Notes: generated by a model from the letters alone, not told the origin. A DNA stretch of 64,000 nucleotides from Bacteroidota bacterium (GCA_016213435.1 JACRAL010000093.1:13670-77669), one strand, 5' to 3'. Shown: positions 13,774 through 58,063, counted from the first letter of the stretch. Made by a program: numbers and translations.

Positions 13774-15741
13774 CTATTTTCTGAATGATGGTGCGTAATA
13801 ATCATACTTGCTGTCAGCAAAAGAAGATACGGTGAAGTCGTCAAGGTAAAAAGAATTCTTGTTTTGATTCCATAGATATATTCTTACTTCATCATCGGGA
13901 TAAGCGGAGGAGGGCAATTCAAATGTGGCAAAAACTTCCTGCCACCTCACCCCATGCCCCTCTCCCACAGGAGAGGGGTGTTTCACAAATTGCTGAAGAG
14001 GTTTCCCCTGCCATTCTCTTTTCCCATTCGGATCGCCAACTTCCATTACAAGTTGTGCATAAATCTCCTCTTTCGAATAAATCCATGCATTAATATTTAC
14101 ACATCCTGAATTATCGCGGAAAAGTTTTTTAACGGTGGTTTTTAGCGTAATACAGAATTCATCTTTTGGTTCGATGTTCAGAGCATATTTTCCGGAATGA
14201 GAATAAGATGTATCGGCTTTGGCAGAATCCCAACTCAGTCCCTTTCCTGCTCCCAAAGAAGAAGAGCGATCAAATCCAACATGAGAATAAAAAATCGTAT
14301 CGCGCTTGCATGAATTAATTTTTCCAAACATGGTTATTTGCGAATTGAAATGCTTTTCATCGTATAAAATACAGGGATATTTGCGCTTTATCAATTCAGG
14401 GATTTCATATGGACTTCTGAAGTTTGACCAACCGTAAATAAAATAAGAGGTTTTGCATGAATCTACCTTCTTCATCATATCTGATACAAATAAAGAATCA
14501 TCTCCGGAAAAAAAATTAAAAGGAACATTAACATTCCATCGTTTAAAATAAAAATCCATAATGTCCTTGCCGGATGAATTCAAAACCGTTGCAACATTTT
14601 CTTTGCCGTATTTATTTTGAAGATTGATTACCGATTGATTGATCTCCTTAAACACGCCAAAGCACTCCCGTTTATAAAATTTCTCTTCCACAATGGTGCT
14701 GAATAATAAAATAATTCCCCACGAAACAAAAAGAATATTATTTAATTTCTTATGCCTCTCCTTAAAGAATGAGAAAAGAAATAACAGCAAAAACGGAAAA
14801 GAAAAAAGAAGCGTAGAATATTGCAAAACAGCATTCGCATTCACGGAATAATAATACCCTGCGACAAAGGGAAGAAAGAACCAAGCAACGCAGATGAACT
14901 GAAATTTTGAAAATGAAATATCCGGATGATAGACAAGCATCGACAAAAGAAAAAGTGTCGCCACCGTAATTACAACAAGTGATGAATCATTGAGTCCGTA
15001 CAAAATATATTTCCAGAGATACTCTTTTTCTGGTTTTGCAAGCCATTCACCCACTCCTCCCATGCTGAACTGATGAACAGAAACGAAAAAGTGAGGAAGA
15101 AAAAGAAAAATAGCAATCCCCCCTGAAAGCAAATAAGGTTTCCATGTTTCTTTTTTCAAAAACAGAAATCCGGTAACGGCAACGATCATGACAAAAAAGA
15201 AAGAAAAATAATGGGTATACATGCAAAGTGCAGTTGCAATTCCATACAAAATAGATTTCAGGTAAATTCTTCTTCCCGATCCAAATAAAAGATTTGTCCA
15301 GAACCAAACCGAAAGCAAAGAAAAAAATAATCCAAAAGAGTAAGGACGTGCCAATTGGCTGTAAAGGATCGGAAAATTAAGAATGGCAAGAGAGAGAGAA
15401 GAAAAACAGGCCGTGGCAAAACCAAACCATTTCTTTGCAACGAAATACAATAACACAACACTGCCAATTCCCGCGATAACAAATGGCAGCCGGATAGCCG
15501 CTTCTGATAATCCAAACAGTTTTGTCCATCCCCAAATAAAGACTTGTGCAAATGCAGGATGGGTATCGCGATCCCGCACACCTTGCACTATGAGTTCAGA
15601 AAAAGACGAATAGTTAAGACGCAGAAATGCTCCCAACTCATCATGCGTAAAAGACCAATTCCAATAATTCCACAACCTCAAAATAGAGGCGATGAAAATA
15701 ATAACGACAAAGACTATCCTTTCTTCAGAAAACTTTTTCAC
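13774..15741 (-). CDS. GT-C-fold membrane glycosyltransferase (PMT/ArnT-like family)
   Basis: 655 aa with about 11 N-terminal transmembrane helices and a soluble C-terminal domain. Contains an in-frame GC-rich palindrome at 13945-13979. Confidence 0.5.
   Translation of the reverse strand: MKKFSEERIVFVVIIFIASILRLWNYWNWSFTHDELGAFLRLNYSSFSELIVQGVRDRDTHPAFAQVFIWGWTKLFGLSEAAIRLPFVIAGIGSVVLLYFVAKKWFGFATACFSSLSLAILNFPILYSQLARPYSFGLFFSLLSVWFWTNLLFGSGRRIYLKSILYGIATALCMYTHYFSFFFVMIVAVTGFLFLKKETWKPYLLSGGIAIFLFLPHFFVSVHQFSMGGVGEWLAKPEKEYLWKYILYGLNDSSLVVITVATLFLLSMLVYHPDISFSKFQFICVAWFFLPFVAGYYYSVNANAVLQYSTLLFSFPFLLLFLFSFFKERHKKLNNILFVSWGIILLFSTIVEEKFYKRECFGVFKEINQSVINLQNKYGKENVATVLNSSGKDIMDFYFKRWNVNVPFNFFSGDDSLFVSDMMKKVDSCKTSYFIYGWSNFRSPYEIPELIKRKYPCILYDEKHFNSQITMFGKINSCKRDTIFYSHVGFDRSSSLGAGKGLSWDSAKADTSYSHSGKYALNIEPKDEFCITLKTTVKKLFRDNSGCVNINAWIYSKEEIYAQLVMEVGDPNGKREWQGKPLQQFVKHPSPVGEGHGVRWQEVFATFELPSSAYPDDEVRIYLWNQNKNSFYLDDFTVSSFADSKYDYYAPSFRK
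13945..13979. repeat. GC-rich palindromic element copy (CCTCACCCCATGCCCCTCTCCCACAGGAGAGGGG), in frame inside a CDS
   Basis: Sequence shared with 22050, 22170, 23091 and 46431. Encodes HPSPVGEGHGVRW in the host ORF. Confidence 0.7.
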
Positions 15742-15762
15742 ACTACAAACTTACGGAATGAT

Positions 15763-17241
15763 TTACATATATGGCTTTGCTACAGAATCGGTATAACTCA
15801 TCTGTGAGTACTGGTCGTTATAAATATTTTGTTCGGGCAAATATTTTATTTCATAATCTCTAGAAATATATTTCTCTATTGAATATTTATCTGCATAAAA
15901 CACAAGCACTACATTTTTATTCTCTTCAGAATGCCAATTTCTCACCTTTAATTCATTATACCACCATCCGCAAATTAAAAATGTTTTCCTCTGTTCGGCT
16001 TTAACTTTCCGGAATACTTCTTCTGTAAAAGCAATTTTATTTAAACGCTTCGTATAATCCGAAAAAACCGGACCCGTCAGAGGATCAATAAAAATCTCCT
16101 GTCCTGCTATCCTGAATTTCACCAAAAAAAGAGAATGTTCTGACCCGCGAAGCGGATCGGTGAGATTGATGCTGAATAGGAAAGAAGACATAGTCATCAG
16201 CACACAAAATGTTTTAAAAGCGCGACTCGAAAGAAAATATCCAAATAGCAGAATGATGAATGGAATTGCCGGTATGAAGTACGCAGATTTCTGGGGTAAA
16301 CGCAAATAGAAAATTATATATATGGCAATCGTAACCAAACAAGCCAAAAACAATTTAACAGGCATTCCTGCCGGAAGCAGTTTCTCTTTCAATGAAATTT
16401 TATCTATAAGATATTTTATCTTGTAAAAAATTATTGAAGCTATTCCAATCGTTCCAAAAACTCCAAATGTTATTATGTAAAATACTTTCGGAAGATTGGG
16501 ATAAGGAAACTGGTCAGCGAAAGTAAAAAAAGAAAATTCGTATGTTTTGACAACAGGAATGTATGTGAGAATTCCGATAGCAACTGTTGTAATACAGAGA
16601 ATAAAAATCCCTCTCGAACTATACTCCCTCCCGATAGCTATCCGGACTGCGGCTGTCCCTTTAGAAAGGGGGAAAAATAAAATACAAAATGGAATCAGCA
16701 TCGCTCCGGAAGTAATTCGAAAACCAATGGAAAATCCGAGCATTATTCCGGAAAGAATTAACTGTCTCAGAGCAAAAGGTTCAGAAGAAGAATTTCTCAT
16801 CCAAGTCAACAAGAAATAAAAACTTCCCATCACACAGGCCATTGCGAGCATGTAATCGATCGTATACGTGGAGGAAATAAAAACGATAGGAGTAAACGCA
16901 AACGCGAACGATGCAAATAAGTAATGCCTGAAGTCGAGCTGTCTGAGCGCTAATGCAAAAAATAAAACTGCGATCACACTCGCAATAGCAGTCAGAAGAT
17001 TGTAGGCGAACAGGCCTGCATTCCACATCAAAGAATAAATTATTTCCTGCAGCGGATGACCAGGAGCGCGTGATAATTCGTACTGACCGGAAAGAGCAAT
17101 ATTTTTTGCTGTAATCGGAAGCAACCATGAATCTTCTTCTGCGCCAAAACCCGCTGAGAGAAACGGAAGACGGGAAAGAAAAACTACAAGAGAAAGAAAA
17201 ATGAGCTGAACAGTTATGTTTTCAGAAAATAGTTTTCTCAT
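15763..17241 (-). CDS. GT-C-fold membrane glycosyltransferase (PMT/ArnT-like), paralog of the upstream gene
   Basis: 492 aa, polytopic membrane protein with the same topology pattern. Confidence 0.5.
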   Translation of the reverse strand: MRKLFSENITVQLIFLSLVVFLSRLPFLSAGFGAEEDSWLLPITAKNIALSGQYELSRAPGHPLQEIIYSLMWNAGLFAYNLLTAIASVIAVLFFALALRQLDFRHYLFASFAFAFTPIVFISSTYTIDYMLAMACVMGSFYFLLTWMRNSSSEPFALRQLILSGIMLGFSIGFRITSGAMLIPFCILFFPLSKGTAAVRIAIGREYSSRGIFILCITTVAIGILTYIPVVKTYEFSFFTFADQFPYPNLPKVFYIITFGVFGTIGIASIIFYKIKYLIDKISLKEKLLPAGMPVKLFLACLVTIAIYIIFYLRLPQKSAYFIPAIPFIILLFGYFLSSRAFKTFCVLMTMSSFLFSINLTDPLRGSEHSLFLVKFRIAGQEIFIDPLTGPVFSDYTKRLNKIAFTEEVFRKVKAEQRKTFLICGWWYNELKVRNWHSEENKNVVLVFYADKYSIEKYISRDYEIKYLPEQNIYNDQYSQMSYTDSVAKPYM

Positions 17242-18038
17242 TTAACAAAATTTCGCTGTCTTACTACTTCGTAAAGCGTGATACCCGCAGATACAGAAAC
17301 ATTCAATGATTCAATTTGACCATAAAGTGGAATTTTCGCTTTCTCATCCGAAATTTTTAGGTATTCCTCAGAAATACCATCTTCTTCCGAACCAAAAATA
17401 ATTGCAGTGGGAAGCGAAAAGTTCATTCCATAAATTGTAGTCTCTGATTTTTCTGTACACGATACAATATGCAGTCCGCTACTTTTCAAAAAGTCGATCG
17501 TTTGTTTTAGATTCTCGCTCCGGCATATCGGAATCTGGTAGATTGCTCCAGCAGATGCTTTGATCGCATCGTTGTTTATCTGAGCACTTCCGCGTGAGGG
17601 AACAATCATCGCGTGAACTCCAGCACATTCCGCGCTTCTGCTGATAGCTCCTATATTACGTACATCCGTAATCCTGTCAAGAATGATCACCAAGGGAATC
17701 TCTCCTTTTTCAAAAACTGTTGGAAGGATGTCTTCAATGTTACGATAAGTGACAGGCGAAAGCAGTGCGATCACTCCCTGATGATTGCGGGATTTGATGA
17801 GGTGGTTCAGTTTTTCAGCAGGAACAAACTGAAACGGAATCTTATATTTTTTTATCTCCTCGTTCAATTCGCTCATCAACTTACTCCCCGTTCCTTGCTG
17901 GAATAAGATTTTTTCAATCTCCTTTCCTGAACGTATCGCTTCAATGATCGGCCGAATGCCGAAAATCAATTTCATTGCAGTATCCTTATCTTCTCTTGAG
18001 TAAGAAGATTTTTTTCTCTCCGGCTTGTTGTTTTCCAT
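17238..18038 (-). CDS. rlmB: 23S rRNA (guanosine-2'-O-)-methyltransferase, SpoU/TrmH family (RlmB-like)
   Basis: 266 aa carrying the SpoU motifs NIGAISRSAECAG and SLNVSVSAGI. Confidence 0.8.
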   Translation of the reverse strand: MENNKPERKKSSYSREDKDTAMKLIFGIRPIIEAIRSGKEIEKILFQQGTGSKLMSELNEEIKKYKIPFQFVPAEKLNHLIKSRNHQGVIALLSPVTYRNIEDILPTVFEKGEIPLVIILDRITDVRNIGAISRSAECAGVHAMIVPSRGSAQINNDAIKASAGAIYQIPICRSENLKQTIDFLKSSGLHIVSCTEKSETTIYGMNFSLPTAIIFGSEEDGISEEYLKISDEKAKIPLYGQIESLNVSVSAGITLYEVVRQRNFVK

Positions 18039-18061
18039 ATTTATTTAAACTAAGTCTAAAA

Positions 18062-19354
18062 TTATTTTTCCGAATATATTCTCCCCTGCCTCCACATCTC
18101 CATCGAATTAAACCAGCTCGTTCTGAATACCTGCGAGCGGTCAAGACGGTAATCGTTATCCGTGAACGGATTGACAACTTTCAAAAAAGAAAATGTGAGC
18201 GAGTTAAAATTATTCTCTTCACCATAAATCCAATTTTCGGAATCAGCATTTTTATATACAATATTAGGTAGACCATAAATCAGGTAGATCAATCCGCGAT
18301 CGGTCTTCCATCCTTCAATGTAAGAAGAAAAATAATTGTTTGAATTCTGAATGCGGTTGTAGAATTTTTTCACCAGCTCACGTCCTCGCTCCTGACTGCC
18401 TCCTGCACTCACCCAGAAACTATCCACCGATGCTTTTAAATTTTTACCAGAGCTCATCGCGTCATATTCCTGTTTTGTAGTAAGAAATCTCAAGGGCTGA
18501 AGCAGAAGCGCAGGAGTTTTTACCTGAGGAAAATCATCGTAAAATCTAAATAGTGTCAAACCTTCTTTTGTATTGGTATCCGCCTGAATATGATAAAAAC
18601 CCTGCTTATTGAAAACATATCCTACACTATCTTTTTCATCCAACTGGAGTGTGAATAAACTATCCGCACGGTATTCAAAAGGAGTCATGTTGCCTATAGA
18701 GAAAGGTGGAGATGGAAGAGGAAAATCACGGTGATAATAACGGACAAAAACTTTTGTGCCAGGCGTCCTGTAATGGATAATAATTTTCTCATTCTCCCTG
18801 ACATTGTCTCTGAAAATAGGCGTTTTATTTTCTGCTGAAAACATTATAAAATTCTGACGGGTGCTATGGTTCATTTTATCGATGGTCATGAAGGTTTTTG
18901 ACGTAACATTCCTGTTCGCATCGGAAAAATCGATCTCAAGAAGATAGGTGTTCGTGAAGATTGCATTGAAATCTATCTTTCCTATCAGGTCTTTTGACGT
19001 TTTGGAATACGGATCCGTGAGATTAACCGTTGTACTGTCAATAATATCTTTTGTTTCATAAGCAGAAACCAGTTTATAATGAATGCTGATATGCGCTGAA
19101 AATTTTTCGCTACCTGTCTGTTTGCTGTATAAAAGCTCTTTGGAGTTGATCTTAAAATGCAATTCAGAGACTGTGTTTGTTCGATGGAAAACCGAAAACT
19201 TGGGATGAAGGACATCTTGCTCTGTCTTATATATATAAGAAAGATTTGGGGTGCCGGATGACCGAGGTTTTGTAGTGGAGCATGCGTTAAAATTAAGAAT
19301 CAGAAATGAAAGAGATAAAAGATATAAGATATAAGGGGCAAGGGACTTCATCAT
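18062..19354 (-). CDS. GWxTD-domain protein
   Basis: 430 aa. The C-terminal region contains GWKTDRG and the conserved surrounding pattern. Confidence 0.6.
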   Translation of the reverse strand: MMKSLAPYILYLLSLSFLILNFNACSTTKPRSSGTPNLSYIYKTEQDVLHPKFSVFHRTNTVSELHFKINSKELLYSKQTGSEKFSAHISIHYKLVSAYETKDIIDSTTVNLTDPYSKTSKDLIGKIDFNAIFTNTYLLEIDFSDANRNVTSKTFMTIDKMNHSTRQNFIMFSAENKTPIFRDNVRENEKIIIHYRTPGTKVFVRYYHRDFPLPSPPFSIGNMTPFEYRADSLFTLQLDEKDSVGYVFNKQGFYHIQADTNTKEGLTLFRFYDDFPQVKTPALLLQPLRFLTTKQEYDAMSSGKNLKASVDSFWVSAGGSQERGRELVKKFYNRIQNSNNYFSSYIEGWKTDRGLIYLIYGLPNIVYKNADSENWIYGEENNFNSLTFSFLKVVNPFTDNDYRLDRSQVFRTSWFNSMEMWRQGRIYSEK

Positions 19355-20664: not shown

Positions 20665-22443
20665 TCAAAAGTAATTTACGATTCCAAAATTCACCTTGCC
20701 TGCTTTCAAATTAATGGGATTAGTAAACTCTCTACCCAGCGCGTAGTTAATGGAAAAAATTCCTGCCTTAGTTTCAAAACTAATGCCCGCACCAAAACCA
20801 TAAGGCGTATCATAGCGGTCACCGATAAAGGAAACGCTGTGATTTTCATAATAGGCTGCATCGCCAAAAAAATAGAGATAAGAATTTTCTTCAAGCAGGT
20901 AGCGGTATTCAAGTGTAAAAATAGAATACTGCGAAGCAAAAATAGATTCCTCATCAAAACCGCGCAAGGTTTTAAATCCACCGATCCTGTACAATTCATT
21001 CCGAAACATATTATCATTCTGCAGGTAAGCGGATCTGTTTCCTATTTTCAGCGTACTCCTGTTTTTTATCGGGACAAAAATCTCAGCTTCAAATTCAGAA
21101 GAGTACTGAACCGAATTTAATTTCAGTCCATTATAAATATTTGCATCGAGTTTCGGATTCTGCTTAATGGTTTTATTTCCCGCACCAATCGTTACAAAAA
21201 CGGAATATCCTCTTCTTGGATTCAGGCGATAATCTAATCTCTCGGATTTAAAGCTGATCCCGTATATAGAGGAAGTAATGTCGGCATACGGAGGAAGCGT
21301 GATGATGTGTTTTAATCCTGTCGTAGCAATCAGTGTCATCTGCCTGCGGTTGACGAATGCTTTGAAATAATTTCCTCCCGAAAGAAGATATTGTATTCCG
21401 AAGTTCGGATTCACTTCTAAATAAGTAGAATCCTTTTTGTAAAGTTTAAAACTGGCATCAATCCCAAACGGAGTTTTAAACAGGAATGGGAAAACGAAAT
21501 GCGTTTTTAGGTCCTGCGTACTTGCCTGCAAGCGCTTCCAGTTGAGCTCAAACAGTTCTCCGCGATAGAAAGCATTGTTGAGTTTCAGATGAGCATCTCC
21601 TGTAAGAAGAACTTTTCCGGTTTTGTTATCGGGAAGCAGACCCACAATTCCGTCAAACTGACTCGCATTTTTTTTCTCAAGAAACAATTCCAGTTTTGCA
21701 TTTGCTCCCGGAAATAAAACCCTGTATGGAATTCGTTCTTTTACAAACGAAAGCTCCTTGACTCGTGTACCGACCTTTCTTATCAGAGACTCATTATACA
21801 GATCACCGCTTTTAATGGAAAGATGACTTTGTAAATACACAGAGGAAATTTTCGCTGATCCATGATTTACTACGCTATCAATTTTAAGAAGATTATTTTT
21901 TTGCAGATTAATGCAAGCTGAAATCGAAACATTCGAAATAACAATGCTGTCTAATTTTACCGAAGCAAAAGGATAACCGTTGTTTTCGCAGTACGTAAGA
22001 ATTTTTTCTTGAAGTTTTCGGACATCCTTGAAGTAAAGCGGTTTCCCCGCCTCACCCCTAGCCCCTCTCCGAAGGAGAGGGGGATTTACTTCACGCAGAA
22101 TTGCTTCTTCCACATTTCCTTTTAGGAGCGTTGCCCATTTGTATTGTTCACCTGTTTTGATATAAATTACCTCACCCCATACCTCCTCTCCCACAGGAGA
22201 GGGAAGTTCGACCACACTATCAACTGAAGCTGAGAGATAAGCATTATCGTACAAGCTGAAAAGAACATTCTGAATTTCTTTGTCGCGTTCTGTTTCTGAT
22301 AGGAAAGTTTTTTTGTAGGAAATCTTGTTTAAAATTTCGCTTGATTGAGAAGGTTTTATCTCCAAAAAAAATAACTTCTGAGCAAATGCTTCAACTCCGC
22401 ACAGCATGACAAGAGAAAAAAGCAAAAGAAAAAACCGTTTCAT
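20665..22443 (-). CDS. Omp85-family outer membrane protein (BamA/TamA-like)
   Basis: 592 aa with a signal peptide. The C-terminal beta-barrel ends in GKVNFGIVNYF. Contains two in-frame palindromic elements. Confidence 0.55.
   Translation of the reverse strand: MKRFFLLLFSLVMLCGVEAFAQKLFFLEIKPSQSSEILNKISYKKTFLSETERDKEIQNVLFSLYDNAYLSASVDSVVELPSPVGEEVWGEVIYIKTGEQYKWATLLKGNVEEAILREVNPPLLRRGARGEAGKPLYFKDVRKLQEKILTYCENNGYPFASVKLDSIVISNVSISACINLQKNNLLKIDSVVNHGSAKISSVYLQSHLSIKSGDLYNESLIRKVGTRVKELSFVKERIPYRVLFPGANAKLELFLEKKNASQFDGIVGLLPDNKTGKVLLTGDAHLKLNNAFYRGELFELNWKRLQASTQDLKTHFVFPFLFKTPFGIDASFKLYKKDSTYLEVNPNFGIQYLLSGGNYFKAFVNRRQMTLIATTGLKHIITLPPYADITSSIYGISFKSERLDYRLNPRRGYSVFVTIGAGNKTIKQNPKLDANIYNGLKLNSVQYSSEFEAEIFVPIKNRSTLKIGNRSAYLQNDNMFRNELYRIGGFKTLRGFDEESIFASQYSIFTLEYRYLLEENSYLYFFGDAAYYENHSVSFIGDRYDTPYGFGAGISFETKAGIFSINYALGREFTNPINLKAGKVNFGIVNYF
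22050..22084. repeat. GC-rich palindromic element copy, in frame
   Basis: CCTCACCCCTAGCCCCTCTCCGAAGGAGAGGGGG; encodes LRRGARGEAG in the host ORF. Confidence 0.7.
22170..22203. repeat. GC-rich palindromic element copy, in frame
   Basis: CCTCACCCCATACCTCCTCTCCCACAGGAGAGGG; encodes PSPVGEEVWGEV. Confidence 0.65.
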
Positions 22444-22491: not shown

Positions 22492-23166
22492 TCAATAAAC
22501 CACCCCTGGGCAACTGTCATGCCCTCCCGGGCGATAAATCAATCCGATGCGGAGTTCCCATGCACGATTGCGAATGTCAAGAGGAGGAGTTTTGTAAGCA
22601 TAATAAAAAGGAGTATCCGGATTGTAGTGAACTTCAATAAATGGCTTGAAATTACCGTAAACAATCTTCTCAAATCCCGCTCCAATTGACCAACTGAAAT
22701 TAAACTTTTGGAATGCGCCTGTAATGGCTGTGGATTTAGTGCCTTGCGTGAGCAGGTATTCAACGCGTGGTCCCATAAGCAAATATGGAAATCCATCAAA
22801 GGTTTCGTACTGGAATTTCAAAAAATTATTCCAGCAGATGTAGTTCAATCGGTTTTTGAAAGTGGCGCTGTCGGTTTTGTCTTTGCATCCTTTCTGGTCG
22901 TATTGAATTTCCGTTACCCAGCGTATATTTTCGTTATCAATAAATTCTGCTCTGAGTGAACCATTAAATCCGAAAATATTTTTTTTACGTTCAGTGGCAG
23001 AAGAACCATCGGGGTAATGCAGAAACCATTTTTCTTTTGCAAGATCTACTCCGGCTGTTGCCCCTATTCCCTGAAAGAACTGAGCAGCAGCCTCACCCCC
23101 CACCCCTCTCCAAAAGAGAGGGGAGAAAAAAATTATTATAGCGAGTGTAATATTTTTTTTGTTCAT
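22492..23166 (-). CDS. Hypothetical outer-membrane beta-barrel protein
   Basis: 224 aa with a signal peptide and alternating hydrophobic pattern. Contains a palindromic element at 23091-23124. Confidence 0.4.
   Translation of the reverse strand: MNKKNITLAIIIFFSPLFWRGVGGEAAAQFFQGIGATAGVDLAKEKWFLHYPDGSSATERKKNIFGFNGSLRAEFIDNENIRWVTEIQYDQKGCKDKTDSATFKNRLNYICWNNFLKFQYETFDGFPYLLMGPRVEYLLTQGTKSTAITGAFQKFNFSWSIGAGFEKIVYGNFKPFIEVHYNPDTPFYYAYKTPPLDIRNRAWELRIGLIYRPGGHDSCPGVVY
23091..23124. repeat. GC-rich palindromic element copy, in frame
   Basis: CCTCACCCCCCACCCCTCTCCAAAAGAGAGGGGA; encodes WRGVGGEAAAQ. Confidence 0.7.
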
Positions 23167-23219
23167 TGAGTTTGTTTTTTCCTTCCCTCCCCAATGGGGA
23201 GGGAAGGGTGGGGCTTCTG

Positions 23220-44145: not shown

Positions 44146-46863
44146 TCAGGATAGAAACTTCTTCGCAGTTGCTATCGCCTTATCAAGACCATCCGCATTT
44201 GTTCCTCCCGCAGTAGCATAAAATGGCTGTCCGCCTCCACCGCCATTTATTTCTTTAGCAAGTTCTTTCACAATATTTCCGGCATGAAGTTTTTTGTCTT
44301 TCACAAGATTATCGGAGAGCATAACGGTAAGTTGCGGTTTTCCATTCACGATTGCGCCAAGAACAAGAAAAAGATTTTCAACTTCACCTTTTAGTCCAAA
44401 GGCAAGATTTTTTATTGCATCAGAAGAGTCTAGATCAATTGTTTTTGCTATAAAATTTATCGTGCCAGATGGTTTTACTCCTGCGGTCATATATCTTGTT
44501 TCTAATCTTTCTATTTTACTAAGAAGATCACTCCTGATATCGTTAGTCCTTTCATATAACCATACCGCTATCTGCCTTTGAAATTCAAAATTTTGTTTCT
44601 GCAAATCCTGAATAGCAGCAATAACATCTTTCGGATGCTTGAGCAATTCTTTTAATTCGTTCAGCGTTCCAATCTGACGATTGATATATTCTTCCGCTTT
44701 CAGGGCGGTTACCGCTTCTATCCTGCGGATACCAGCCGCTACCGCGCTTTCAGAAGTAATTTTAAAATACCCAATTTGTCCGGTTGCGGGAACATGAGTT
44801 CCTCCGCAAAGTTCTATAGAGTAATTTTTGTCGAAAGTTACCACGCGCACTGTGTCTCCGTATTTTTCTCCAAACAAAGCCATTGCACCCGATTTCTTTG
44901 CCTGTTCAATTGGCATTACTTGAGTATGTCCAGAAATATTTTCACGGATTTTTTCATTTACAATTGCTTCGATCTTCGCCAGTTCTTCATCCGTAACTTT
45001 TGAAAAATGTGAAAAGTCGAAGCGCAAATGCTCCTCATTCACCAGCGAACCTTTTTGCTCCACATGTTTTCCAAGCACATGCCGTAAAGCCGCATGAAGC
45101 AAATGCGTTGCAGTGTGGTTGTTCATTATAAGCTGACGTTTTAGCTTATCTACTTTTGCTATTGCCTTGTTATCATGTGGTAATCTAGGTTTTGTATCTA
45201 CAATATGAATAATCATTCCATCTTCCTTCTTTGTACCTAATACTTTTAACTCTTGCTTGTTTTCAGGAAATATAATACTACCTGTGTCGCCAATTTGTCC
45301 ACCGCTTTCGGCATAAAATGGTGTTACACCTAAACAAATTTGATATAAGTCCTTACCTTTAATATTTACCTTTCTATATCTTGCAATTATTGTTTCGTTT
45401 TCAAGTGTGTCATAACCAATAAATGCCCCACCAACGGAACGGACTACTAAATCCGTCCAGTCACTTTTATCCACTTTCGCGTCTTCACGCGAGCGGAACT
45501 TTTGTTTTCCAAGTTCAGCTTCAAACGCTTCCTCATCAATGCTCAGTCCATACTGGCGCGCAATGAGCGAAGTGAGATCCACCGGAAATCCGTATGTGTC
45601 ATAAAGTTCAAAAACGGTTTTCCCGTCAATTACTTTTTCTGTTTTTGAGTTTGACAAAGGAATACAAACTGCATCGATTTTTTTCAACCCTTGTTCCAGT
45701 GTGCGGAAGAAAGCGGTTTCTTCTTCCTTAATTACCTTCTCTGTAAAAAGTTTTTCCTTTTCTATTTCCGGAAAAAATGTTCCCATCTGATTGGCGAGAA
45801 CAGGAACGATTCGGTATAAAAATGGTTCTTTAATTCCGAGCGATTGGTAGCCGTAGCGGACTGCTCTGCGCAAAATTCTTCGTATTACATAACCCGCTCC
45901 TGTGTTAGAAGGAAGTTGTCCGTCTGCAATTGCAAATGAAATGGCGCGGATGTGATCGGCAATTACACGCATGGCAACATTTGTAATTTCTGCCTGAGGA
46001 TTGCTGTCCTCTCCATGATAACGCAGTCCGCACAAGTCTTCAATTCTACGAATGATGGGTTGAAAAACATCAGTGTCGTAAGTGGATTTTTTATTCTGAA
46101 GCACCATGCACAATCTTTCAAATCCCATTCCGGTATCCACATGCTGAGCTGGAAGTTTTACCAGCGAGCCATCTGCTTTGCGGTTGAACTCCATGAAAAC
46201 AAGATTCCACACTTCTATCACTTGAGGATTCCCTTTGTTCACCAATGTTTTTCCATCCACCTTTTCGCGCTCGCGATCATCACGCATGTCAACATGAATT
46301 TCAGAACATGGACCGCAGGGACCGGTTTCTCCCATCTCCCAGAAATTATCTTTTTTAGAACCATTAATTATTCGAGATGGATTAATATAATTTTTCCAGG
46401 CATCAGCCGCTTCCTGATCGAAAGGAATCACCTCACCCCCACCCCCTCTCCCAGAGGAGAGGGGAGAAGTTCCTTCGAAAACTGTAACATATAATCTGTC
46501 TGGGGAAATCTGATACACTCCTGTAAGAAGTTCCCATGCCCATTTGATCGCTTCCTTTTTAAAATAATTTCCAAAACTCCAGTTACCGAGCATTTCAAAC
46601 ATCGTGTGATGGTAAGTATCGATTCCAACTTCTTCCAAATCATTATGCTTGCCGGAAACACGGAGGCATTTTTGCGTATCAGCAACACGCGGATATTTTA
46701 TCTTAGCATTTCCAAGAAAAAGATCTTTGAACTGATTCATTCCGGCATTGGTGAACATCAGCGTTGGATCGTTCTTTATCACAAGTGGAGCCGATGGCAC
46801 GATCTCATGGTCTTTCCCTCGGAAATATTCCAGAAACTTTTCTCTAACCTTAGCTGATTTCAT
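44146..46863 (-). CDS. alaS: Alanine--tRNA ligase
   Basis: 905 aa with class II aminoacyl-tRNA synthetase motifs, the editing domain and a C-terminal DHHA1-like region. Contains the in-frame palindromic element at 46431-46466. Confidence 0.95.
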   Translation of the reverse strand: MKSAKVREKFLEYFRGKDHEIVPSAPLVIKNDPTLMFTNAGMNQFKDLFLGNAKIKYPRVADTQKCLRVSGKHNDLEEVGIDTYHHTMFEMLGNWSFGNYFKKEAIKWAWELLTGVYQISPDRLYVTVFEGTSPLSSGRGGGGEVIPFDQEAADAWKNYINPSRIINGSKKDNFWEMGETGPCGPCSEIHVDMRDDREREKVDGKTLVNKGNPQVIEVWNLVFMEFNRKADGSLVKLPAQHVDTGMGFERLCMVLQNKKSTYDTDVFQPIIRRIEDLCGLRYHGEDSNPQAEITNVAMRVIADHIRAISFAIADGQLPSNTGAGYVIRRILRRAVRYGYQSLGIKEPFLYRIVPVLANQMGTFFPEIEKEKLFTEKVIKEEETAFFRTLEQGLKKIDAVCIPLSNSKTEKVIDGKTVFELYDTYGFPVDLTSLIARQYGLSIDEEAFEAELGKQKFRSREDAKVDKSDWTDLVVRSVGGAFIGYDTLENETIIARYRKVNIKGKDLYQICLGVTPFYAESGGQIGDTGSIIFPENKQELKVLGTKKEDGMIIHIVDTKPRLPHDNKAIAKVDKLKRQLIMNNHTATHLLHAALRHVLGKHVEQKGSLVNEEHLRFDFSHFSKVTDEELAKIEAIVNEKIRENISGHTQVMPIEQAKKSGAMALFGEKYGDTVRVVTFDKNYSIELCGGTHVPATGQIGYFKITSESAVAAGIRRIEAVTALKAEEYINRQIGTLNELKELLKHPKDVIAAIQDLQKQNFEFQRQIAVWLYERTNDIRSDLLSKIERLETRYMTAGVKPSGTINFIAKTIDLDSSDAIKNLAFGLKGEVENLFLVLGAIVNGKPQLTVMLSDNLVKDKKLHAGNIVKELAKEINGGGGGQPFYATAGGTNADGLDKAIATAKKFLS
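46431..46466. repeat. GC-rich palindromic element copy, in frame in alaS
   Basis: CCTCACCCCCACCCCCTCTCCCAGAGGAGAGGGGAG; encodes SPLSSGRGGGGEV. Confidence 0.75.
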
Positions 46864-52640: not shown

Positions 52641-53240
52641 TTACAGTATTGTCGTTATAATTGTCTTGTCCGCCTTAGCTTGTTTATATTCTTCGTTCAT
52701 TTCTGAAGTCATATTTGGACCATAATAAATTCCTTTTGATTGAATAAAACCGTCATAAATGATTTTGTCCTTGAACGGGATAATTGCCGTATGGCATAAT
52801 GCCGGAAAGCGAGAAAAAAATTCATCAAATCTGTCTCCCAATGCTTTTACTGCATATATTTTATTGTCTGCTGTGTCAATAAAAACTGCATGTCTAGCAA
52901 GACATTTAAAAATCACGAAATTGCTTTTTATTTTCTTTTTGAATCCTTCAAGGATTTTAATTTGATCAAGCGTCAAAGAGTCAACCCTGCTTTTAAGATA
53001 CTCTTCCAATAGCTCCATATTTTCAAATAATTTTTCCCGACATTTAAATTTGATTTGAGTACCAAGTTTAATGAACTTATTAACATCTGTACCTGCAGGA
53101 ATAATTTTTTCATTTTGTCCGACAAAATATAAGAGAGCAAGATGTGTTTTTAAGAATTCCTGATATTCATCTCTGTCAAGTGTCATTATTGGTATCTGAA
53201 AAGTGTAAAAACAAATATAGAAAAATTGACGGGATAGCAA
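52641..53240 (-). CDS. Hypothetical protein carried on an insertion
   Basis: 199-aa ORF; the likely start is MTLDRDEY. Flanked by the 72-bp direct repeats. Confidence 0.5.
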   Translation of the reverse strand: MLSRQFFYICFYTFQIPIMTLDRDEYQEFLKTHLALLYFVGQNEKIIPAGTDVNKFIKLGTQIKFKCREKLFENMELLEEYLKSRVDSLTLDQIKILEGFKKKIKSNFVIFKCLARHAVFIDTADNKIYAVKALGDRFDEFFSRFPALCHTAIIPFKDKIIYDGFIQSKGIYYGPNMTSEMNEEYKQAKADKTIITTIL

Positions 53241-53312
53241 ATTCTGTTGAGATGGTAAAGGCGCTGAAGAATATCAAGAGTTTTTTGGTGGAGATGAAGG
53301 AGTCGCTCTGAT
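53240..53312. repeat. 72-bp direct repeat, copy 2 (orphan merR 3' end)
   Basis: See 52564..52635. Coordinates here are uncertain by about 1 nt. Confidence 0.75.
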
Positions 53313-53367
53313 TGTTTGCTAAATTAGTTTAAATGATTTTCTTGCCGATTTAACTATCGAAGAATTT

Positions 53368-53604
53368 TCATGACGCAAAACGTTTTTCTAATTCGATTTT
53401 TAGCTCTTTCATCATATCTCCAAAAACCAAGCAATCTTTATGAAATTTCCTTTCATAAAAAGTACCTTCATCACTTATCCAATAGCATAGTACATTTTCT
53501 CCTTTAATTTCCCTAACAAGCATTTTTGCACCTCCAGATGAAAGTTTGACTTCTTCATTAGGCAAGAAATTTCTATCGGTTGATTTTAATTTTGAATTTT
53601 CCAT
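53368..53604 (-). CDS. DUF2158 (YodC-like) small protein
   Basis: 78 aa with the KLSSGGAKMLV...CYW pattern typical of YodC-like proteins. Confidence 0.5.
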   Translation of the reverse strand: MENSKLKSTDRNFLPNEEVKLSSGGAKMLVREIKGENVLCYWISDEGTFYERKFHKDCLVFGDMMKELKIELEKRFAS

Positions 53605-53636
53605 TTTAATTATGATTTAACATTTAGTGCAACGTA

Positions 53637-55130
53637 TTACAAATCCTCCTCAATATCATTCATCTTAGAACCGCGGATGATGCTGTTACCTCCACCCAAA
53701 TCAGATTCCGAGAATGCGATGGTAGAACCGGAAGGTTCTACAAATTTTGCAAACTGGCTGATGAACAACAGATTTTCAGAACCCACACGTCCGTTACGAT
53801 GCTTTGCAATAATGATTTCGGCAAGTCCTTCGGTGGAATTTCCATTTTCATCCTGGGTAATTCCCGCCATGTCCGCACGGTAAATGAACATAACCAAGTC
53901 AGCATCCTGCTCAATAGCTCCCGATTCACGCAGATCGGATAACTGAGGGCGCTTGCTTCCTCCACGCTGCTCCACCGCACGGCTCATTTGGGAAAGTGCG
54001 ATAATGGGAACGTCTAATTCTTTTGCAATCGCTTTCAGCGAACGGGAAATGTTGCTCACTTCCTGCTCGCGCGAAAATTTTCCTTCCTGCCCCGAAACCA
54101 TCAGCTGGAGATAATCCACTATGAGTAATGAAATATTATGCTGTGCTTTCAACCGCCTTGCCTTGGCGCGGAATTCAAAAATTGAAAGTGCGGGAGTATC
54201 GTCAATATATATAGGAGCCGTGGTTAGTTTTCCTATTTTGGCATTCAACTGATGAAACTCATCATCGCGTAATTCGCCTTTTCTTAATTTATCGGCAGGC
54301 AGTTCCGTTTCTGCGGCAACCAAACGACTCACTAACTGAACAGAAGTCATCTCAAGCGAGAAGATCGCAACGCCTTTATCATGATCCACCGCAGCATTTC
54401 GCGCAACGCTTCCTATAAACGCAGACTTACCTGTACCGGGACGAGCAGCAAGAATAATAAGGTCGGATTTTTGCCAGCCACCTGTGATCGCATCCAAACG
54501 CGTGAAACCGCTTGGCACTCCGCCAAATTTCTGATCGCGCGCTGCTTCGATCTGCTGGATGGTTTGCCCAAGGATCGGACGAATGTGTTCGAAGTCCCTG
54601 CGGATATTTGTTTGACTGATGGAAAATAAATTCTGTTCGGCTCTGTTCAGCAATTCAAAAACATCGGAAGTGTCTTCATATGCATGCTGAAGCGTGTCGG
54701 TAGAAATTCGGATAAGTTCGCGCTGAAGATATTTTTCAAGAACAATGCGCCCGTGCATTTCCACGTTTGCTGCAGAAGCAACACGGTTGGTCAATTGCGT
54801 AATGTAATATGCACCTCCGGCAATTTCCAGTTCACCTGTTTTTTTCAGTTCCTGAGTGACAGTGAGAATGTCTACCGGTTCGGATTTAGCAAACAAACTT
54901 TGTATGGCAGTAAATATATGCTTGTGCGCATCTTTATAAAACGCTTCAGGAGTTAACATGGCAACCACGTTGGTGAGCGCATCTTTATCAAGCATGAGCG
55001 CGCCAAGTACGGCTTCTTCCAGATCCACTGCCTGCGGAGGAAGTTTACCAAGTTCAAGTAATTGTGCAGGAGTTATAGTGGTCCTAGTTCTTTTGCGAGT
55101 GTCTTTGTTGTCTTTTGAGCGCGAGTCCAT
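53637..55130 (-). CDS. dnaB: Replicative DNA helicase
   Basis: 497 aa with Walker A (ARPGTGKS), RecA-like motifs, and an N-terminal DnaB domain. Confidence 0.95.
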   Translation of the reverse strand: MDSRSKDNKDTRKRTRTTITPAQLLELGKLPPQAVDLEEAVLGALMLDKDALTNVVAMLTPEAFYKDAHKHIFTAIQSLFAKSEPVDILTVTQELKKTGELEIAGGAYYITQLTNRVASAANVEMHGRIVLEKYLQRELIRISTDTLQHAYEDTSDVFELLNRAEQNLFSISQTNIRRDFEHIRPILGQTIQQIEAARDQKFGGVPSGFTRLDAITGGWQKSDLIILAARPGTGKSAFIGSVARNAAVDHDKGVAIFSLEMTSVQLVSRLVAAETELPADKLRKGELRDDEFHQLNAKIGKLTTAPIYIDDTPALSIFEFRAKARRLKAQHNISLLIVDYLQLMVSGQEGKFSREQEVSNISRSLKAIAKELDVPIIALSQMSRAVEQRGGSKRPQLSDLRESGAIEQDADLVMFIYRADMAGITQDENGNSTEGLAEIIIAKHRNGRVGSENLLFISQFAKFVEPSGSTIAFSESDLGGGNSIIRGSKMNDIEEDL

Positions 55131-55330
55131 AGAGCGAATGACAGATTACGTATTATGAATAAAATTTTAATTGTAGCACAAAGATAAATAAATCGTTTCG
55201 ACAATCCAAAGAAGATTCTACCACTAACTAACACCAATTAACACATAACCAACATACATTAAAGATAAATTTTTTCTCAAGTTGACACGAAACTGCTTAT
55301 GTTTGCTATGAAAAATAAAATCTTCATTTC

Positions 55331-56725
55331 GTGAAAGAAAAATTTGTCAACATCCTTGCATTGTTCATGATTTTTTATATGCAAGCGCCCGGCAACTCAA
55401 ACGGCAATTCATGCTTTGCTCAAACTTCGGATAAAAATATTACTTTTTACGGGCAACTCCGGCAAAGTGACAAGCGGCCGCTTCGTTCCTCCACTGTATT
55501 ATTACTGCAATACAATCCGGATACAAAATCGGTTTCAGTCGTTGACTCCGCTACTACTGATTTTGGCGGTGACTATCGGTTTAATAAGACGCAACCGTTT
55601 AACAAAACTCAGCAGTATTATATTCTTGCTTTACCAAATGAATCGTATGATTACGAATTTCCTACATACTATGGTACTTCACTTTTTCTTGAAAAAGCTA
55701 CCCCTCTTACTGTTCTGAATCCGGGAGAAGAAATAGAAATCAATTTCACTACAATTAAAAAGAAGTCTTCTTCAGGTCGGGGAGCTATTGGCGGGCACAT
55801 TACTACCAATGGCGCTCCTGTTCCGAGTTTACGCGTATTCCTTTTTAGTCAGAATAATAATCCTGCTGCATTTGAATCTACAGATTCCTCAGGTTATTTC
55901 AAGTTCAATAAGATTTCGTATGGCATTTATTTTTTATGGATTGATTTTCCGGGAGTGGATAATTCTGTTCCCGATAAAGTGACTATTCATTCGCTTAACC
56001 CCGTAAAAGACAGTTTGAATTTCCGTATAGAAGAAAGTAATCTGATTTGGACTGATAACGCATATACAAGCATTAAAGATGCACTCCTCATTAAAACGCA
56101 TGTGTACTATCTTCAATTAAATAGTTTGCAGTATAATGTCATGGAGCAGAGTTTGATTATCCGAACTGATGGTTCTGTTACTTTAAAGCCGGCAATTGGA
56201 GAATTAACAAATCTGGAAACTTTGGAAATTGCAATCAATCAAATCACCACTCTTCCTGCTGAAATCGGCAAGTTGACCAAGTTAACCTTACTGAATGCCT
56301 CTTTGAATAAACTCAGCACACTGCCTCCTACAATAGAAAATCTGAAAAATCTGGAAGTGCTCGATCTTGGGAAAAATAATTTTAAGAAATTTCCGGAAGT
56401 AATCTGCAAACTTTCTTCATTGGAAGTTTTATCCCTGCAGAATAATCCATTCGATTCATTGCCCGGTTCAATCAGCAATCTGAAGAATTTAAAAAGCCTT
56501 TCACTTGAAAATAATTTTGAACTACTGGAACTTCCTCCGCAGATTGGAAAACTACATGATCTTGAAACGTTAAAGCTTTCCAACTGCACGAAATTAAGAT
56601 CACTTCCAAAGGAATTAAATAATCTGAAAAATCTGAAAATGCTTGATATTACAGGAACAAAACTTAACGCAAAAGATTTCCAGAAAGCAGTTCCCGAATG
56701 CGAAGTGAGGGATGGGAAGAAATAG
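55331..56725 (+). CDS. Leucine-rich-repeat protein with an N-terminal beta-sandwich region
   Basis: 464 aa. The C-terminal half is made of LxxLxxLxLxxN repeats. Confidence 0.7.
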   Translation: MKEKFVNILALFMIFYMQAPGNSNGNSCFAQTSDKNITFYGQLRQSDKRPLRSSTVLLLQYNPDTKSVSVVDSATTDFGGDYRFNKTQPFNKTQQYYILALPNESYDYEFPTYYGTSLFLEKATPLTVLNPGEEIEINFTTIKKKSSSGRGAIGGHITTNGAPVPSLRVFLFSQNNNPAAFESTDSSGYFKFNKISYGIYFLWIDFPGVDNSVPDKVTIHSLNPVKDSLNFRIEESNLIWTDNAYTSIKDALLIKTHVYYLQLNSLQYNVMEQSLIIRTDGSVTLKPAIGELTNLETLEIAINQITTLPAEIGKLTKLTLLNASLNKLSTLPPTIENLKNLEVLDLGKNNFKKFPEVICKLSSLEVLSLQNNPFDSLPGSISNLKNLKSLSLENNFELLELPPQIGKLHDLETLKLSNCTKLRSLPKELNNLKNLKMLDITGTKLNAKDFQKAVPECEVRDGKK

Positions 56726-56773
56726 AGCAACCCCACCCCGAAAGAGAAGTTGGGAGGGGCTGAAATAACTATA

Positions 56774-58063
56774 TCAAATAGATTGCGCTCCTAAAAACAG
56801 AACTGGATTTTCTAAAAGTGTTTTTAGTGTCTGTAAAAAATCTGCGCCTGTTACTCCATCCACCACACGGTGATCGCAGGAAAGCGTAACTTTCATTACT
56901 ACGCCCGGAACAATTTTCCCGTCTTTCACCACAGGAGTTTCTGTAATTCCTCCGACTGCAAGAATGCAAGCATCGGGAGGATTGATAATGGCTGTAAACT
57001 CTTCAATACCATACATGCCCAAATTGGAAATTGTAAATGTGTTTCCTTCCCAGTCTTTTGGCTGAAGTTTTTTCTCTTTAGCTTTCTTGGAGAACTCTTT
57101 TACTTCTCCTGCAATCTGAGAAAGCGTTTTGCCATCGGCAAATTTTATTACAGGTACAAGCAAACCTTCTTCTACGGCTACCGCAATTCCGATATGAATA
57201 TGATTATTGCGTCTGATAACATCTCCCATCCAGGATGAATTCACCTTCGGATGTTCGCGCAGCGCGGAACTAACCGCTTTAATTACAAGATCGTTATACG
57301 ATATCTTCACAGAAGAAACTTCGTTGATGGTCTCTCGCACTTTTACTAACTCTTCCACACTGATCTCCATGGTGAGATAAAAATGCGGTGAAGTAAATTT
57401 ACTTTCGCTCAATCGTTTTGCAATGGTCTTGCGCATTTGAGAAACAGGCTCATCGGTAAAACTTTCTTTGCCCTCCCCCTTGCCTCCTCCAGAGGGGGAA
57501 ACTGAGAAGTGCAAATAATTTTCTATGTCTTTCCTCACCACTCTTCCGCCTTCACCACTTCCTCCAATCAAAGAGATTTTCAAATTTCTGTCCTTGGCAA
57601 GTTTTTTTGCAAGAGGAGATGCTTTGATGAAACCGGGTGCTGGATGCTGGATGTTGGATGTTGAAACAACCTGTTCACCTTGCATTACCTTCTGGTTTTT
57701 GACTTCTGACTTTTGACTTTCTTTTTGGGGTTCAGTTTTTTTTATTTCTTCCTTTTTGCCAACTGCCGTTTGCACACTGCCGACTTTTTTCTTTTCTTCT
57801 TCCAATATTTTTGCAACATTCTCGCCTTCTTTTCCAATAATAGCAAGAACCGAATCAACCGGTGCAGATTTTTTATCCGGAGTTCCTATGTAAAGCAGTA
57901 CGCCATCGTAAAAACTTTCAAACTCCATGGTGGCTTTGTCGCTGTCGATCTCCGCAAGAATATCTCCAGACTTTACTTTATCGCCAACTTTTTTTAGCCA
58001 CCTCGATACGGTTCCTTCCGTCATCGTGTCGCTGAGTTTGGGCATTCTAACTATTTCGGCCAT
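56774..58063 (-). CDS. 2-oxoacid dehydrogenase E2 component (dihydrolipoamide acyltransferase)
   Basis: Lipoyl domain (AEIDSDKATMEF) and catalytic DHRVVDG. Contains a palindromic element at 57471-57500. Confidence 0.85.
   Translation of the reverse strand: MAEIVRMPKLSDTMTEGTVSRWLKKVGDKVKSGDILAEIDSDKATMEFESFYDGVLLYIGTPDKKSAPVDSVLAIIGKEGENVAKILEEEKKKVGSVQTAVGKKEEIKKTEPQKESQKSEVKNQKVMQGEQVVSTSNIQHPAPGFIKASPLAKKLAKDRNLKISLIGGSGEGGRVVRKDIENYLHFSVSPSGGGKGEGKESFTDEPVSQMRKTIAKRLSESKFTSPHFYLTMEISVEELVKVRETINEVSSVKISYNDLVIKAVSSALREHPKVNSSWMGDVIRRNNHIHIGIAVAVEEGLLVPVIKFADGKTLSQIAGEVKEFSKKAKEKKLQPKDWEGNTFTISNLGMYGIEEFTAIINPPDACILAVGGITETPVVKDGKIVPGVVMKVTLSCDHRVVDGVTGADFLQTLKTLLENPVLFLGAQSI

Follow-up and report, generated by a model that had tools for sequence, protein, structure and literature searches.

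We report on a short GC-rich element that lies in frame inside protein-coding genes of a Bacteroidota bacterium. The DNA analyzed, hereafter the window, is a stretch of 64,000 nucleotides (GCA_016213435.1, JACRAL010000093.1:13670-77669), and positions are counted from its first nucleotide. The element is a member of the intrastrand triplex motifs, rich in G/C, that are known from Escherichia coli as BoxC, PIT or TMECO. In other genomes, the same motif bounds in-frame cassettes encoding a DUF559 domain, and we suggest that the copies in the window probably derive from such a cassette.

Results

Five copies of a three-block element lie in frame in host genes

CCTCACCCC is found at exactly five sites in the 64-kb window (13945, 22050, 22170, 23091 and 46431), all on the plus strand. 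All five canonical copies are inside intact open reading frames (ORFs) on the minus strand, and in each of the five the G-rich strand of the element is the sense strand of the host gene. The initial annotation of this DNA had placed copies at these positions in minus-strand ORFs, and its coordinates, host genes and quoted peptides are all correct. It had described the element as a palindrome with a leader; the hairpin is confirmed, while the true design consists of three blocks, i.e. a hairpin and a mirror-repeat third block. On the G-rich strand, the copies read CCCCTCTCC-loop-GGAGAGGGG-NNN-GGGGTGAGG, with the third block mirroring the second except that a T replaces one A.

The copy at 13945..13978 (minus strand) is in frame in the gene for a PMT_2 family glycosyltransferase of 655 aa (13774..15741, minus strand), which has a syntenic 654-aa orthologue at a related locus (L124). 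On the G-rich strand it reads CCCCTCTCC-TGTG-GGAGAGGGG-CAT-GGGGTGAGG, with a perfect 9-bp stem and 9/9 triads of a purine triplex, and it is translated as HPSPVGEGHGVR (aa 588-599). Two copies are in the gene for a POTRA/BamA-TamA-like outer-membrane protein of 592 aa (20665..22443, minus strand; the Omp85-like gene). These are site 2 at 22050..22082 (minus strand; loop TTC, spacer CTA; peptide PPLLRRGARGEA, aa 121-132) and site 1 at 22170..22204 (minus strand; peptide LPSPVGEEVWGEV, aa 80-92), the latter a degenerate copy with a 7-bp stem and an intact third block. The copy at 23091..23123 (minus strand; 8-bp stem) encodes SPLFWRGVGGEA (aa 15-26) within the signal peptide region of an outer-membrane protein of 224 aa that has no Pfam match (22492..23166, minus strand); its L124 and L125 orthologues are 215 and 219 aa long. 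The copy at 46431..46464 (minus strand; loop TCTG, spacer GTG) encodes PLSSGRGGGGEV (aa 134-145) in alaS. This gene (44146..46863, minus strand) is intact and codes for a protein of 905 aa with the Pfam domains tRNA-synt_2c, tRNA_SAD and DHHA1, which is identical to a protein (P0001) from an NCBI Bacteroidota metagenome-assembled genome.

The five copies are 33-35 bp long and have a GC content of 63-74%, compared with 35-47% for the window. Stems are perfect over 9 bp at 13957, 22062 and 46443 and shorter at 23103 (8 bp) and 22185 (7 bp); loops are 3-5 nt and the spacer before the third block is 3 nt. Thus, of the originally proposed dimensions (~35 bp, ~75% GC, a 9-bp stem and an N4 loop), the length is close, the stem applies to three of the five copies, loops vary around four and the GC content is somewhat lower. 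The hairpins start in codon phases 2, 1, 2, 1 and 0, in agreement with the proposal that the element is read in all three frames. By contrast, the third block has two readings only, GGT-GAG in four copies and GGG-GTG-AGG in one, and the remaining frame contains a TGA stop.

The motif is far more common than expected by chance, as the initial annotation had supposed: CCTCACCCC occurs on average 0.17 times in dinucleotide-preserving shuffles, and 0/100 shuffles reach five. Similarly, the hairpin CCCCTCTCC-N4-GGAGAGGGG with up to two mismatches has three matches in the window versus 0.00 expected. An exhaustive scan of the window for GC-rich hairpins returned the five copies, a variant at 23184 and an unrelated 7-bp hairpin at 63122. 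The alaS copy is identical in an independent Logan assembly of the same organism (L123), which rules out an assembly artefact there and makes an artefact unlikely as an explanation of the window copies.

Folding energies of the motif hairpins are -15 to -25 kcal/mol, and ViennaRNA predicts the hairpin only. The energies of the five copies are not significantly better than those of dinucleotide shuffles (z +0.4 to -1.6) and, therefore, folding does not constitute independent evidence. A reading of the hairpins as terminators was rejected by inspection: no T-run follows any of them on the transcribed strand. Rfam at the gathering threshold and ARAGORN gave zero matches in the window.

The insertions are lineage-specific and located in tolerated places

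At all five sites, the nearest relatives lack both the DNA element and the peptide, and no orthologue without the DNA motif was found to carry the peptides. These alignments bear out the initial description of a selfish repeat tolerated in proteins. In AlaS, 118/120 of the closest homologues read FEGSP-EENIPFD where the window protein reads FEGTSPLSSGRGGGGEVIPFD, and the empty site is present at the DNA level in L122. The insertion had been predicted to occupy a short linker of other AlaS proteins, and in the alignment with human AlaRS (5KNN) it indeed falls in a variable loop. An AlphaFold model, itself of moderate confidence (mean predicted local distance difference test score, pLDDT, 70), shows residues 134-144 as unstructured (pLDDT <50) between a strand (124-129) and a helix (150-157). 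In the Omp85-like protein, the ancestral GYREKLFK at site 2 is replaced in the window, and 112/121 homologues, outgroups included, keep GYREKLF(K). At site 1, L124 and L125 are empty, and one homologue (P0130) has PSPLGEGAGGEV. The PMT_2 protein reads FVKHPSPVGEGHGVRWQEV where the syntenic L124 protein reads FVKQTG-KWQEV. In the 224-aa protein, the L124 and L125 signal peptides are unrelated and shorter at the motif position.

L124 is syntenic with the window from fabD to the PMT_2 gene and lacks the four non-alaS copies; L125 lacks the three within its span. L122 and L124 (44 kb in total) have no motif copy, and L125 has a single one, in frame in a NIF3 gene. The net gain per element of 33-35 nt is ~15-27 nt, implying that 3-8 host codons were replaced per insertion. 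Judged by these alignments, the five copies are recent, lineage-specific in-frame insertions that replaced host codons.

Several further differences were noted in the same genes. The signal peptide of the 224-aa protein (22492-23166) is remodelled relative to L124:9305-9952 and L125:7042-7701, with a new hydrophobic NITLAIIIFF upstream, and the motif peptide WRGVGGE is just ahead of an AAQ-FFQG junction. At another AlaS site, the homologue P0009 (L121:1780-1830), as well as P0020, P0021 and P0115, has an in-frame WSFGN-PARPAGG-YFKK encoded by a different GC-rich hairpin (CCTGCC-CGTCC-GGCAGG-C-GGG) that is missing from the window, suggesting that this clade contains more than one family of small GC hairpin inserts. 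Finally, L124 has an extra DUF6265 gene (L124:16588-17058) between a 480-aa gene and the PMT_2 gene that the window (~15741-15763) lacks, an ordinary difference in gene content.

Two alleles are shared with non-sister lineages

L208, which is not a sister lineage, has an Omp85 site-2 allele with the same uncommon TTC loop, the same start of the spacer and the same flank change from ILSEV to ILREV/I-N, together with an eroded third block. In a simple neighbor-joining tree of the gene, the site-2 peptide signature is found in ~6 scattered lineages. Likewise, the alaS copy is common to the window and the non-sister L121, in which hairpin and loop are the same and the third block is eroded. We read the scattered alleles as having arisen once each and then having been copied laterally, in short tracts, to orthologous sites, much as homing elements do; plain recombination among co-occurring relatives would be an alternative.

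The element belongs to the BoxC/PIT/TMECO family

The five elements in the window are members of the BoxC/PIT/TMECO family of intrastrand triplex motifs, rich in G/C, of E. coli and other Proteobacteria (Hoyne/Maher 2000; Holder et al. 2015). Its design runs from a C-rich block through a loop to the G-rich block complementary to it; after a spacer of 3 nt, another G-rich block follows as the mirror image of the preceding one. When GGGGTGAGG is laid antiparallel on GGAGAGGGG, 9/9 triads are allowed ones (G.G-C, A.A-T, T.A-T), and a sequence-agnostic detector of the three-block design finds six sites in the window versus 0.2 in shuffles.

The motif was first named BoxC, then PIT and is now called TMECO (Holder et al. 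2015, PMC4666352), and the copies in E. coli MG1655 read CCCTCTCCC-TGT-GGGAGAGGG-CCG-GGGTGAGGG (PMC4666352). Relative to these, all blocks of the window copies are shifted by one base in step, from CCCTCTCCC/GGGAGAGGG/GGGTGAGGG to CCCCTCTCC/GGAGAGGGG/GGGGTGAGG. Because the shift is common to all three blocks, triplex pairing and register are preserved. The published pattern of one C-rich and two G-rich 9-mers, CCCTCNCCC-N3-6-GGGNGAGGG-N3-GGGNGAGGG (PMC4666352), if taken literally, misses the window copies by this one-base shift; block order, loops and spacer agree, and three of the five copies are perfect. The window copies share with the E. coli motif the order of blocks, the cores CCCTCTCC, GGAGAGGG and GGGTGAGG, the 3-nt second spacer and a size of 32-37 nt. 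Also shared are a dispersed multi-copy distribution, often as inverted pairs, and triads that all are of purine-motif class II. They differ in their Bacteroidota host and in that 5/5 canonical copies are coding; in MG1655, the motif (23 copies) is reported 'always' to lie between genes (PMC4666352), a location that describes this strain and does not define the family.

According to the same work (PMC4666352), the E. coli single strand forms a triplex in vitro (circular dichroism and nuclear magnetic resonance) with no triplex signal in vivo, and TMECO has neither promoter nor terminator activity. It is linked to local genomic instability, with no mobile-element association or partner gene, and a census of 262 proteobacterial genomes counted 3,610 copies. 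The element has therefore already been described as a sequence family; the in-frame coding copies, the multi-phylum range and the link to a DUF559 cassette reported below appear to be new.

The motif is widespread and no recurrent transposase accompanies it

An exact-pattern scan with one genome per species matched at least 120 loci, and the sets analyzed here are the matches listed. These matches span at least 10 phyla, the phyla and classes being Bacteroidota, Chloroflexota, Cyanobacteria, Planctomycetota, Acidobacteriota, Nitrospirota, Methylomirabilota, Gracilibacteria, Ignavibacteria and Alpha-, Beta- and Gammaproteobacteria. The 143 listed copies are near-identical, have unrelated flanks and are found at a locus GC content of 31-73%; the element is, thus, not the feature of an AT-rich genome that it was initially taken for. 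In the listed loci with <45% GC, 11/38 copies are inside long ORFs, in both orientations. Pfam-confirmed in-frame solo copies are present elsewhere in NuoL/M-like, MnmE, LigA, M19 dipeptidase, phosphoesterase and NIF3 genes, ORF-based coding calls in high-GC loci being less reliable than such Pfam-checked ones. Coding copies are generally a minority state, and the 5/5 in the window is unusually high. The exact motif is also carried by viral or prophage contigs of IMG/VR, at least 120 in number (L209-L328), with 239 copies in the 1.04 Mb of these loci that was examined.

Tandem arrays of the motif with a period of 42-44 bp were noted at L158:1-1100 (up to ~14 copies), L024:726-802, L156:3-120 and L194:3330-3450, and some such arrays are inside long ORFs beside a DUF559 domain.

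Direct repeats at the ends of 297 copies are no more common than in shuffled pairings, i.e. there is no target-site duplication, and clustering of the 3,431 ORFs of the 120 listed loci revealed no recurrent transposase, RAYT/Y1 included. Together, these two results argue against classic transposition. In flank logos, only a CTC ahead of the hairpin is conserved.

The motif bounds in-frame DUF559 cassettes

The same clustering of ORFs of the 120 listed loci identified the DUF559 domain as recurrent, and 7/120 loci have DUF559 within ~100 bp of a motif. At L004, L009, L022 and L028, DUF559 is located between inverted motif copies, the unit as a whole being read in frame with a larger gene around it. 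Among the motif-seeded units, the genes entered are those for MetRS, chorismate synthase, a type ISP restriction enzyme and LeuRS, the last of these twice and at different sites; the cassette inserts start and stop at motifs.

In the reciprocal direction, 80 metagenome loci were picked by DUF559 peptide patterns alone; these are the closest relatives of a motif-flanked query. Here, the canonical three-block motif is within 260 bp of the domain in 40/80 loci, and on both sides in 23. Its positions are stereotyped (~-100 and +20 to +80 relative to the DUF559 domain), and its density is 1.85/kb near DUF559 versus 0.12/kb further off. With the sequence-agnostic detector, 72/79 DUF559 loci are positive within 220 bp (37 on both sides), and the density of three-block structures is 4.24/kb near DUF559 versus 0.17/kb further off, a 25-fold difference. 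Cassettes without the canonical motif have variant termini of the same design, e.g. CCCCC-TAAAT-CCCCC-loop-GGGGG with an inverted partner at the other end. Cassettes have a median length of 488 bp (~0.45-0.55 kb) and are open-reading end to end.

Approximately half of the DUF559 domains in the seeded loci are in frame within large ORFs. By Pfam, the hosts are LeuRS, MetRS, an Ile/Val-type aminoacyl-tRNA synthetase (aaRS), chorismate synthase, MetH, adenine deaminase, iPGM and DegT, as well as RecQ, Lhr, DNA methylases, a type I S subunit and a type ISP restriction-modification enzyme. Insertion sites recur, with two in LeuRS and one in chorismate synthase. In cassette-bearing ORFs, the host domains are intact on either side and DUF559 is full-length (Pfam E ~1e-30 to 1e-38). 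Pfam detected no Hint/intein domain in 25 such ORFs, only host domains and DUF559/MTES_1575; ribozymes were not searched for. With the cassette in frame and no splicing domain detected, the host gene would express the endonuclease as an internal domain. An endonuclease is suggested by matches of the DUF559 profile to PDB entries 3HRL and 3R3P ('mobile intron protein', the catalytic domain of the homing endonuclease I-Bth0305I; E = 7e-5). Motif-encoded peptides are at the ends of 2/120 free-standing DUF559 proteins, the called ORFs stopping ahead of the motifs. Collapsed C3-hairpin-G3 forms, the expected product if a cassette loses the DNA between its two hairpins by deletion, are present at L043, L022 and L050.

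One LeuRS ORF of 1,332 aa (L130:757-4752) contains two DUF559 cassettes, before and after the editing domain, and further solo motifs. Carriage of the cassette by phages was considered and is unsupported: the 120 viral loci examined contain the motif without DUF559.

In the literature searched, no paper links DUF559/YcjD to BoxC/PIT/TMECO or describes in-frame DUF559 cassettes, which is not proof of novelty. The tie to DUF559 sets our data apart from those of Holder et al., who report no associated gene.

ycjD and motif number in E. coli

The sole DUF559 gene of MG1655, ycjD, ends ...TCA CCC TCT CCC TGA inside an eroded C-block, and TMECO #9 is located 168 bp downstream. ycjD is accessory, being present in 3,378/5,426 complete E. 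coli genomes (62%). For copy counts, we used a composite query of motif A, ycjD and motif B and sampled chromosomes evenly down the ranking. The ycjD-positive chromosomes (n=37) have 18-39 further motif places (median 26) and the ycjD-negative ones (n=22) have 1-23 (median 9; one-sided Mann-Whitney p = 5e-10); UTI89 and O25b:H4 have two each. Genomes without ycjD are collinear beyond fabI up to a point ~40 bp short of the triplex motif (relative to NC_000913 1351040-1351830; L126), and in O157:H7 a TetR/RND efflux island is at the ycjD position (L329). E. coli RefSeq annotation leaves these repeats unmarked.

Variant and eroded copies in the window

Intergenic relatives of the element had initially been listed at 2884, 4701-4760, 23181 and 56735. 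The one at 23181 is a clean three-block variant of other sequence (23184..23213; plus strand as the G-rich strand), TCCCTCCCC-AAT-GGGGAGGGA-AGGGTGGGG, caught by the sequence-agnostic detector; its 13-bp hairpin has an energy of -28.5 kcal/mol (z = -2.9). The other three are weak. At 4701..4760 (no strand assigned), a variant made up of C/G blocks only may form a degenerate inverted pair, first CCACCCC-TT-CCCC-TAAA-GGG... and then CCCCC-TTTA-GGG-C-GGGGGG; this uncertain pair is missed by the strict detector and is similar to variant termini seen in DUF559 cassettes, e.g. in L134. The intergenic regions 2884-2920 and 4698-4735 have in common a sequence of ~35 nt, CAGCCACCCCTT(C)CCCTAAAGGG.GAGGA, which looks like a weak three-block variant or a separate small repeat. 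Lastly, a possible eroded copy, also uncertain, is at 57471..57500 (minus strand) in the inter-domain linker SPSGGGKGEGK of the E2 acyltransferase; the protein is 3 aa longer than that of L122 within this variable linker, and the complementary stem is gone.

Discussion

We suggest that the copies in the window are solo, non-autonomous derivatives of the DUF559 cassette that are tolerated in protein loops. On present evidence this is probably correct, with the mobilising enzyme being inferred. In this model, DUF559 would recognise the three-block structure and make a break, and recombination repair would then copy either the cassette or a patch bearing the motif to another site, new or orthologous. 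Motifs that occur solo or as inverted pairs would be non-autonomous or decayed derivatives, comparable to miniature inverted-repeat transposable elements (MITEs) or relics. In coding DNA, selection would retain only in-frame, loop-located copies; the copies in the window would have survived because each is in frame, avoids the TGA frame and is seated in a loop, a linker or a signal peptide. To recognition and cleavage by DUF559, the non-autonomous or decayed status of solo motifs and selection for in-frame loop copies we give an even chance or slightly better. More tentatively, and with somewhat less than an even chance, BoxC/PIT/TMECO as a whole may represent the structured ends and MITE-like relics of a hitherto unrecognised mobile element. 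This element would be a ~0.5 kb unspliced cassette in frame in loops of conserved housekeeping genes of many bacterial phyla, expressed as a host-internal DUF559 domain and spreading from one orthologous site to another by endonuclease-triggered gene conversion, with YcjD as the E. coli endonuclease and the window copies as solo derivatives.

Several observations weigh against a DUF559-driven origin. The window has no DUF559 gene, and a full cassette at the window sites was not seen among the 120 best AlaS or Omp85-like homologues. The flank polarity of cassettes is mixed, with the third block outward in 15 and inward in 7, which is unusual for fixed transposon ends. The DUF559-seeded sample describes one subfamily and not all DUF559 domains, and DUF559 is present in 0/120 examined viral loci, taken from the at least 120 IMG/VR contigs that carry the motif. 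In E. coli, the correlation between motif number and ycjD is in the predicted direction but is confounded by phylogroup, and O157:H7 lacks ycjD yet has ~15 motif places. In addition, DUF559 proteins are not known to act biochemically on the motif, and Holder et al. saw no triplex signal in vivo (PMC4666352).

Some of the same observations would fit motifs that spread alone by replication or repair, i.e. by stalling at the hairpin or triplex, template switching and slippage, with DUF559 genes being preferred landing sites or using the motifs as insulators or regulatory structures. The viral contigs without DUF559 and the motif places of O157:H7 point in this direction, the tandem arrays with their 42-44 bp period look like slippage products, and Holder et al. 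tie the motif to local instability with no mobile-element gene (PMC4666352). However, near-identity over at least 10 phyla, in unrelated flanks and at 31-73% GC, is hard to explain without a sequence-specific partner. Moreover, the stereotyped geometry and 25-fold enrichment around DUF559, the matched variant motifs at both ends of variant cassettes and the cassette insertions that end at motifs all count against independent spread, which we consider unlikely. If each solo copy in the window instead were the remnant of a full cassette once located at that site, solo motifs need never have moved in trans. The two hairpins of a cassette are ~22-bp direct repeats, collapsed forms do exist, and selection would favor shrinking a 160-aa insert inside an enzyme. 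Yet, each copy in the window has a hairpin with a third block on one side only, unlike the collapsed two-sided form, five former cassettes in 64 kb would be required while none is seen at these sites among 120 AlaS and 120 Omp85-like homologues, and E. coli has ~25 motifs versus one DUF559 gene. This makes remnants a quite improbable source of the window copies.

Selection for a host function, either as mRNA hairpins in translation pausing or transcript stabilisation or as useful Gly/Pro-rich loops, could account for the sense-strand bias of the five copies and for hairpins that fold at -15 to -25 kcal/mol. Against it, the host proteins are unrelated, frames and peptides differ, the nearest relatives do without the copies, decay is evident (in L121 and L208 it affects the third block, at 22170 the stem), other genomes have copies in either orientation, the z-scores of folding lack significance and earlier work found no promoter or terminator activity (PMC4666352). 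A host function is, thus, very unlikely.

The initial annotation likened the copies to Rickettsia palindromic elements (RPEs). RPEs are 100-150 bp long and restricted to Rickettsia (Ogata et al.). Membership in this group, or among the repetitive extragenic palindromes (REPs) and their paired forms (REPINs) moved by RAYT transposases, has next to no probability: in-frame insertion into ORFs is RPE-like and inverted pairs ~100 bp apart are REPIN-like, but the elements are only 33-35 bp long, have no GTAG or CGTC tag at either end and come with no recurrent Y1-transposase family in the 120 listed loci, and their sequence agrees with BoxC/TMECO instead.

BoxC/PIT/TMECO has been known in E. coli since the 1990s without an assigned origin, partner protein or function, and DUF559 (YcjD in E. 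coli) is a very large domain family without an assigned function. The link between the two turns both puzzles into a direct experiment, namely whether YcjD binds, cuts or mobilises the motifs. If solo motifs and cassettes are related as we suggest, they would represent a new mobile strategy beside inteins and RPEs, in which an unsplicing endonuclease resides in essential proteins and is bounded by triplex-capable DNA. In practical terms, the motif peptides (PSPxGEGxGVR, PLSxGRGxGGE etc.) and the 100-aa DUF559 inserts distort alignments, domain annotation and marker-gene phylogenies such as those of aaRS, and the motifs mark recombination-prone sites.

Comparison with known systems

Selfish palindromic repeats that are inserted in frame in unrelated ORFs, with a peptide tolerated at the protein surface, are a theme shared with RPEs. 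RPEs are longer and lack the three-block/triplex design, and Rfam had no match in the window; to our knowledge, no endonuclease cassette is associated with them. REP/REPIN-RAYT systems similarly have short GC-rich hairpin repeats, as singlets and inverted doublets, that flank a single-copy domesticated nuclease gene. In these systems, however, the partner is an HUH Y1 transposase and not a PD-(D/E)xK/Vsr-like DUF559, GTAG/CGTC tags are present, and the repeats are species-specific, whereas the motif described here is conserved across phyla and coding insertions are common. MITEs derived from DDE transposons have terminal inverted repeats and a target-site duplication, and the motif copies lack the latter. 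Yeast mitochondrial GC clusters, which are short, mobile and palindromic, are likewise GC-rich within AT-rich DNA and can enter the protein gene var1 in frame; they are organellar and unrelated in sequence, with no third block and no DUF559.

With regard to the cassette, homing endonucleases (inteins, I-Bth0305I 3R3P) are similar in design, with the ORF of an endonuclease, a putative one in the cassette, in conserved, often essential genes such as those for aaRS, helicases and methylases, with sites that recur in orthologues and one allele with short co-converted flanks across non-sister lineages, as at Omp85 site 2 and in alaS. DUF559 cassettes differ by having no Pfam Hint/intein domain (intron ribozymes were outside the search), and homing elements do not normally come with structured inverted flanks or with solo derivatives, of which the cassette family has hundreds. 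ShiLan is a non-spliced insertion in phage methylases with its HNH out of frame (PMC11855218). The DUF559 insert resembles it in keeping the host reading frame without a recognisable splicing element and departs from it in that DUF559 itself is in the frame of the host.

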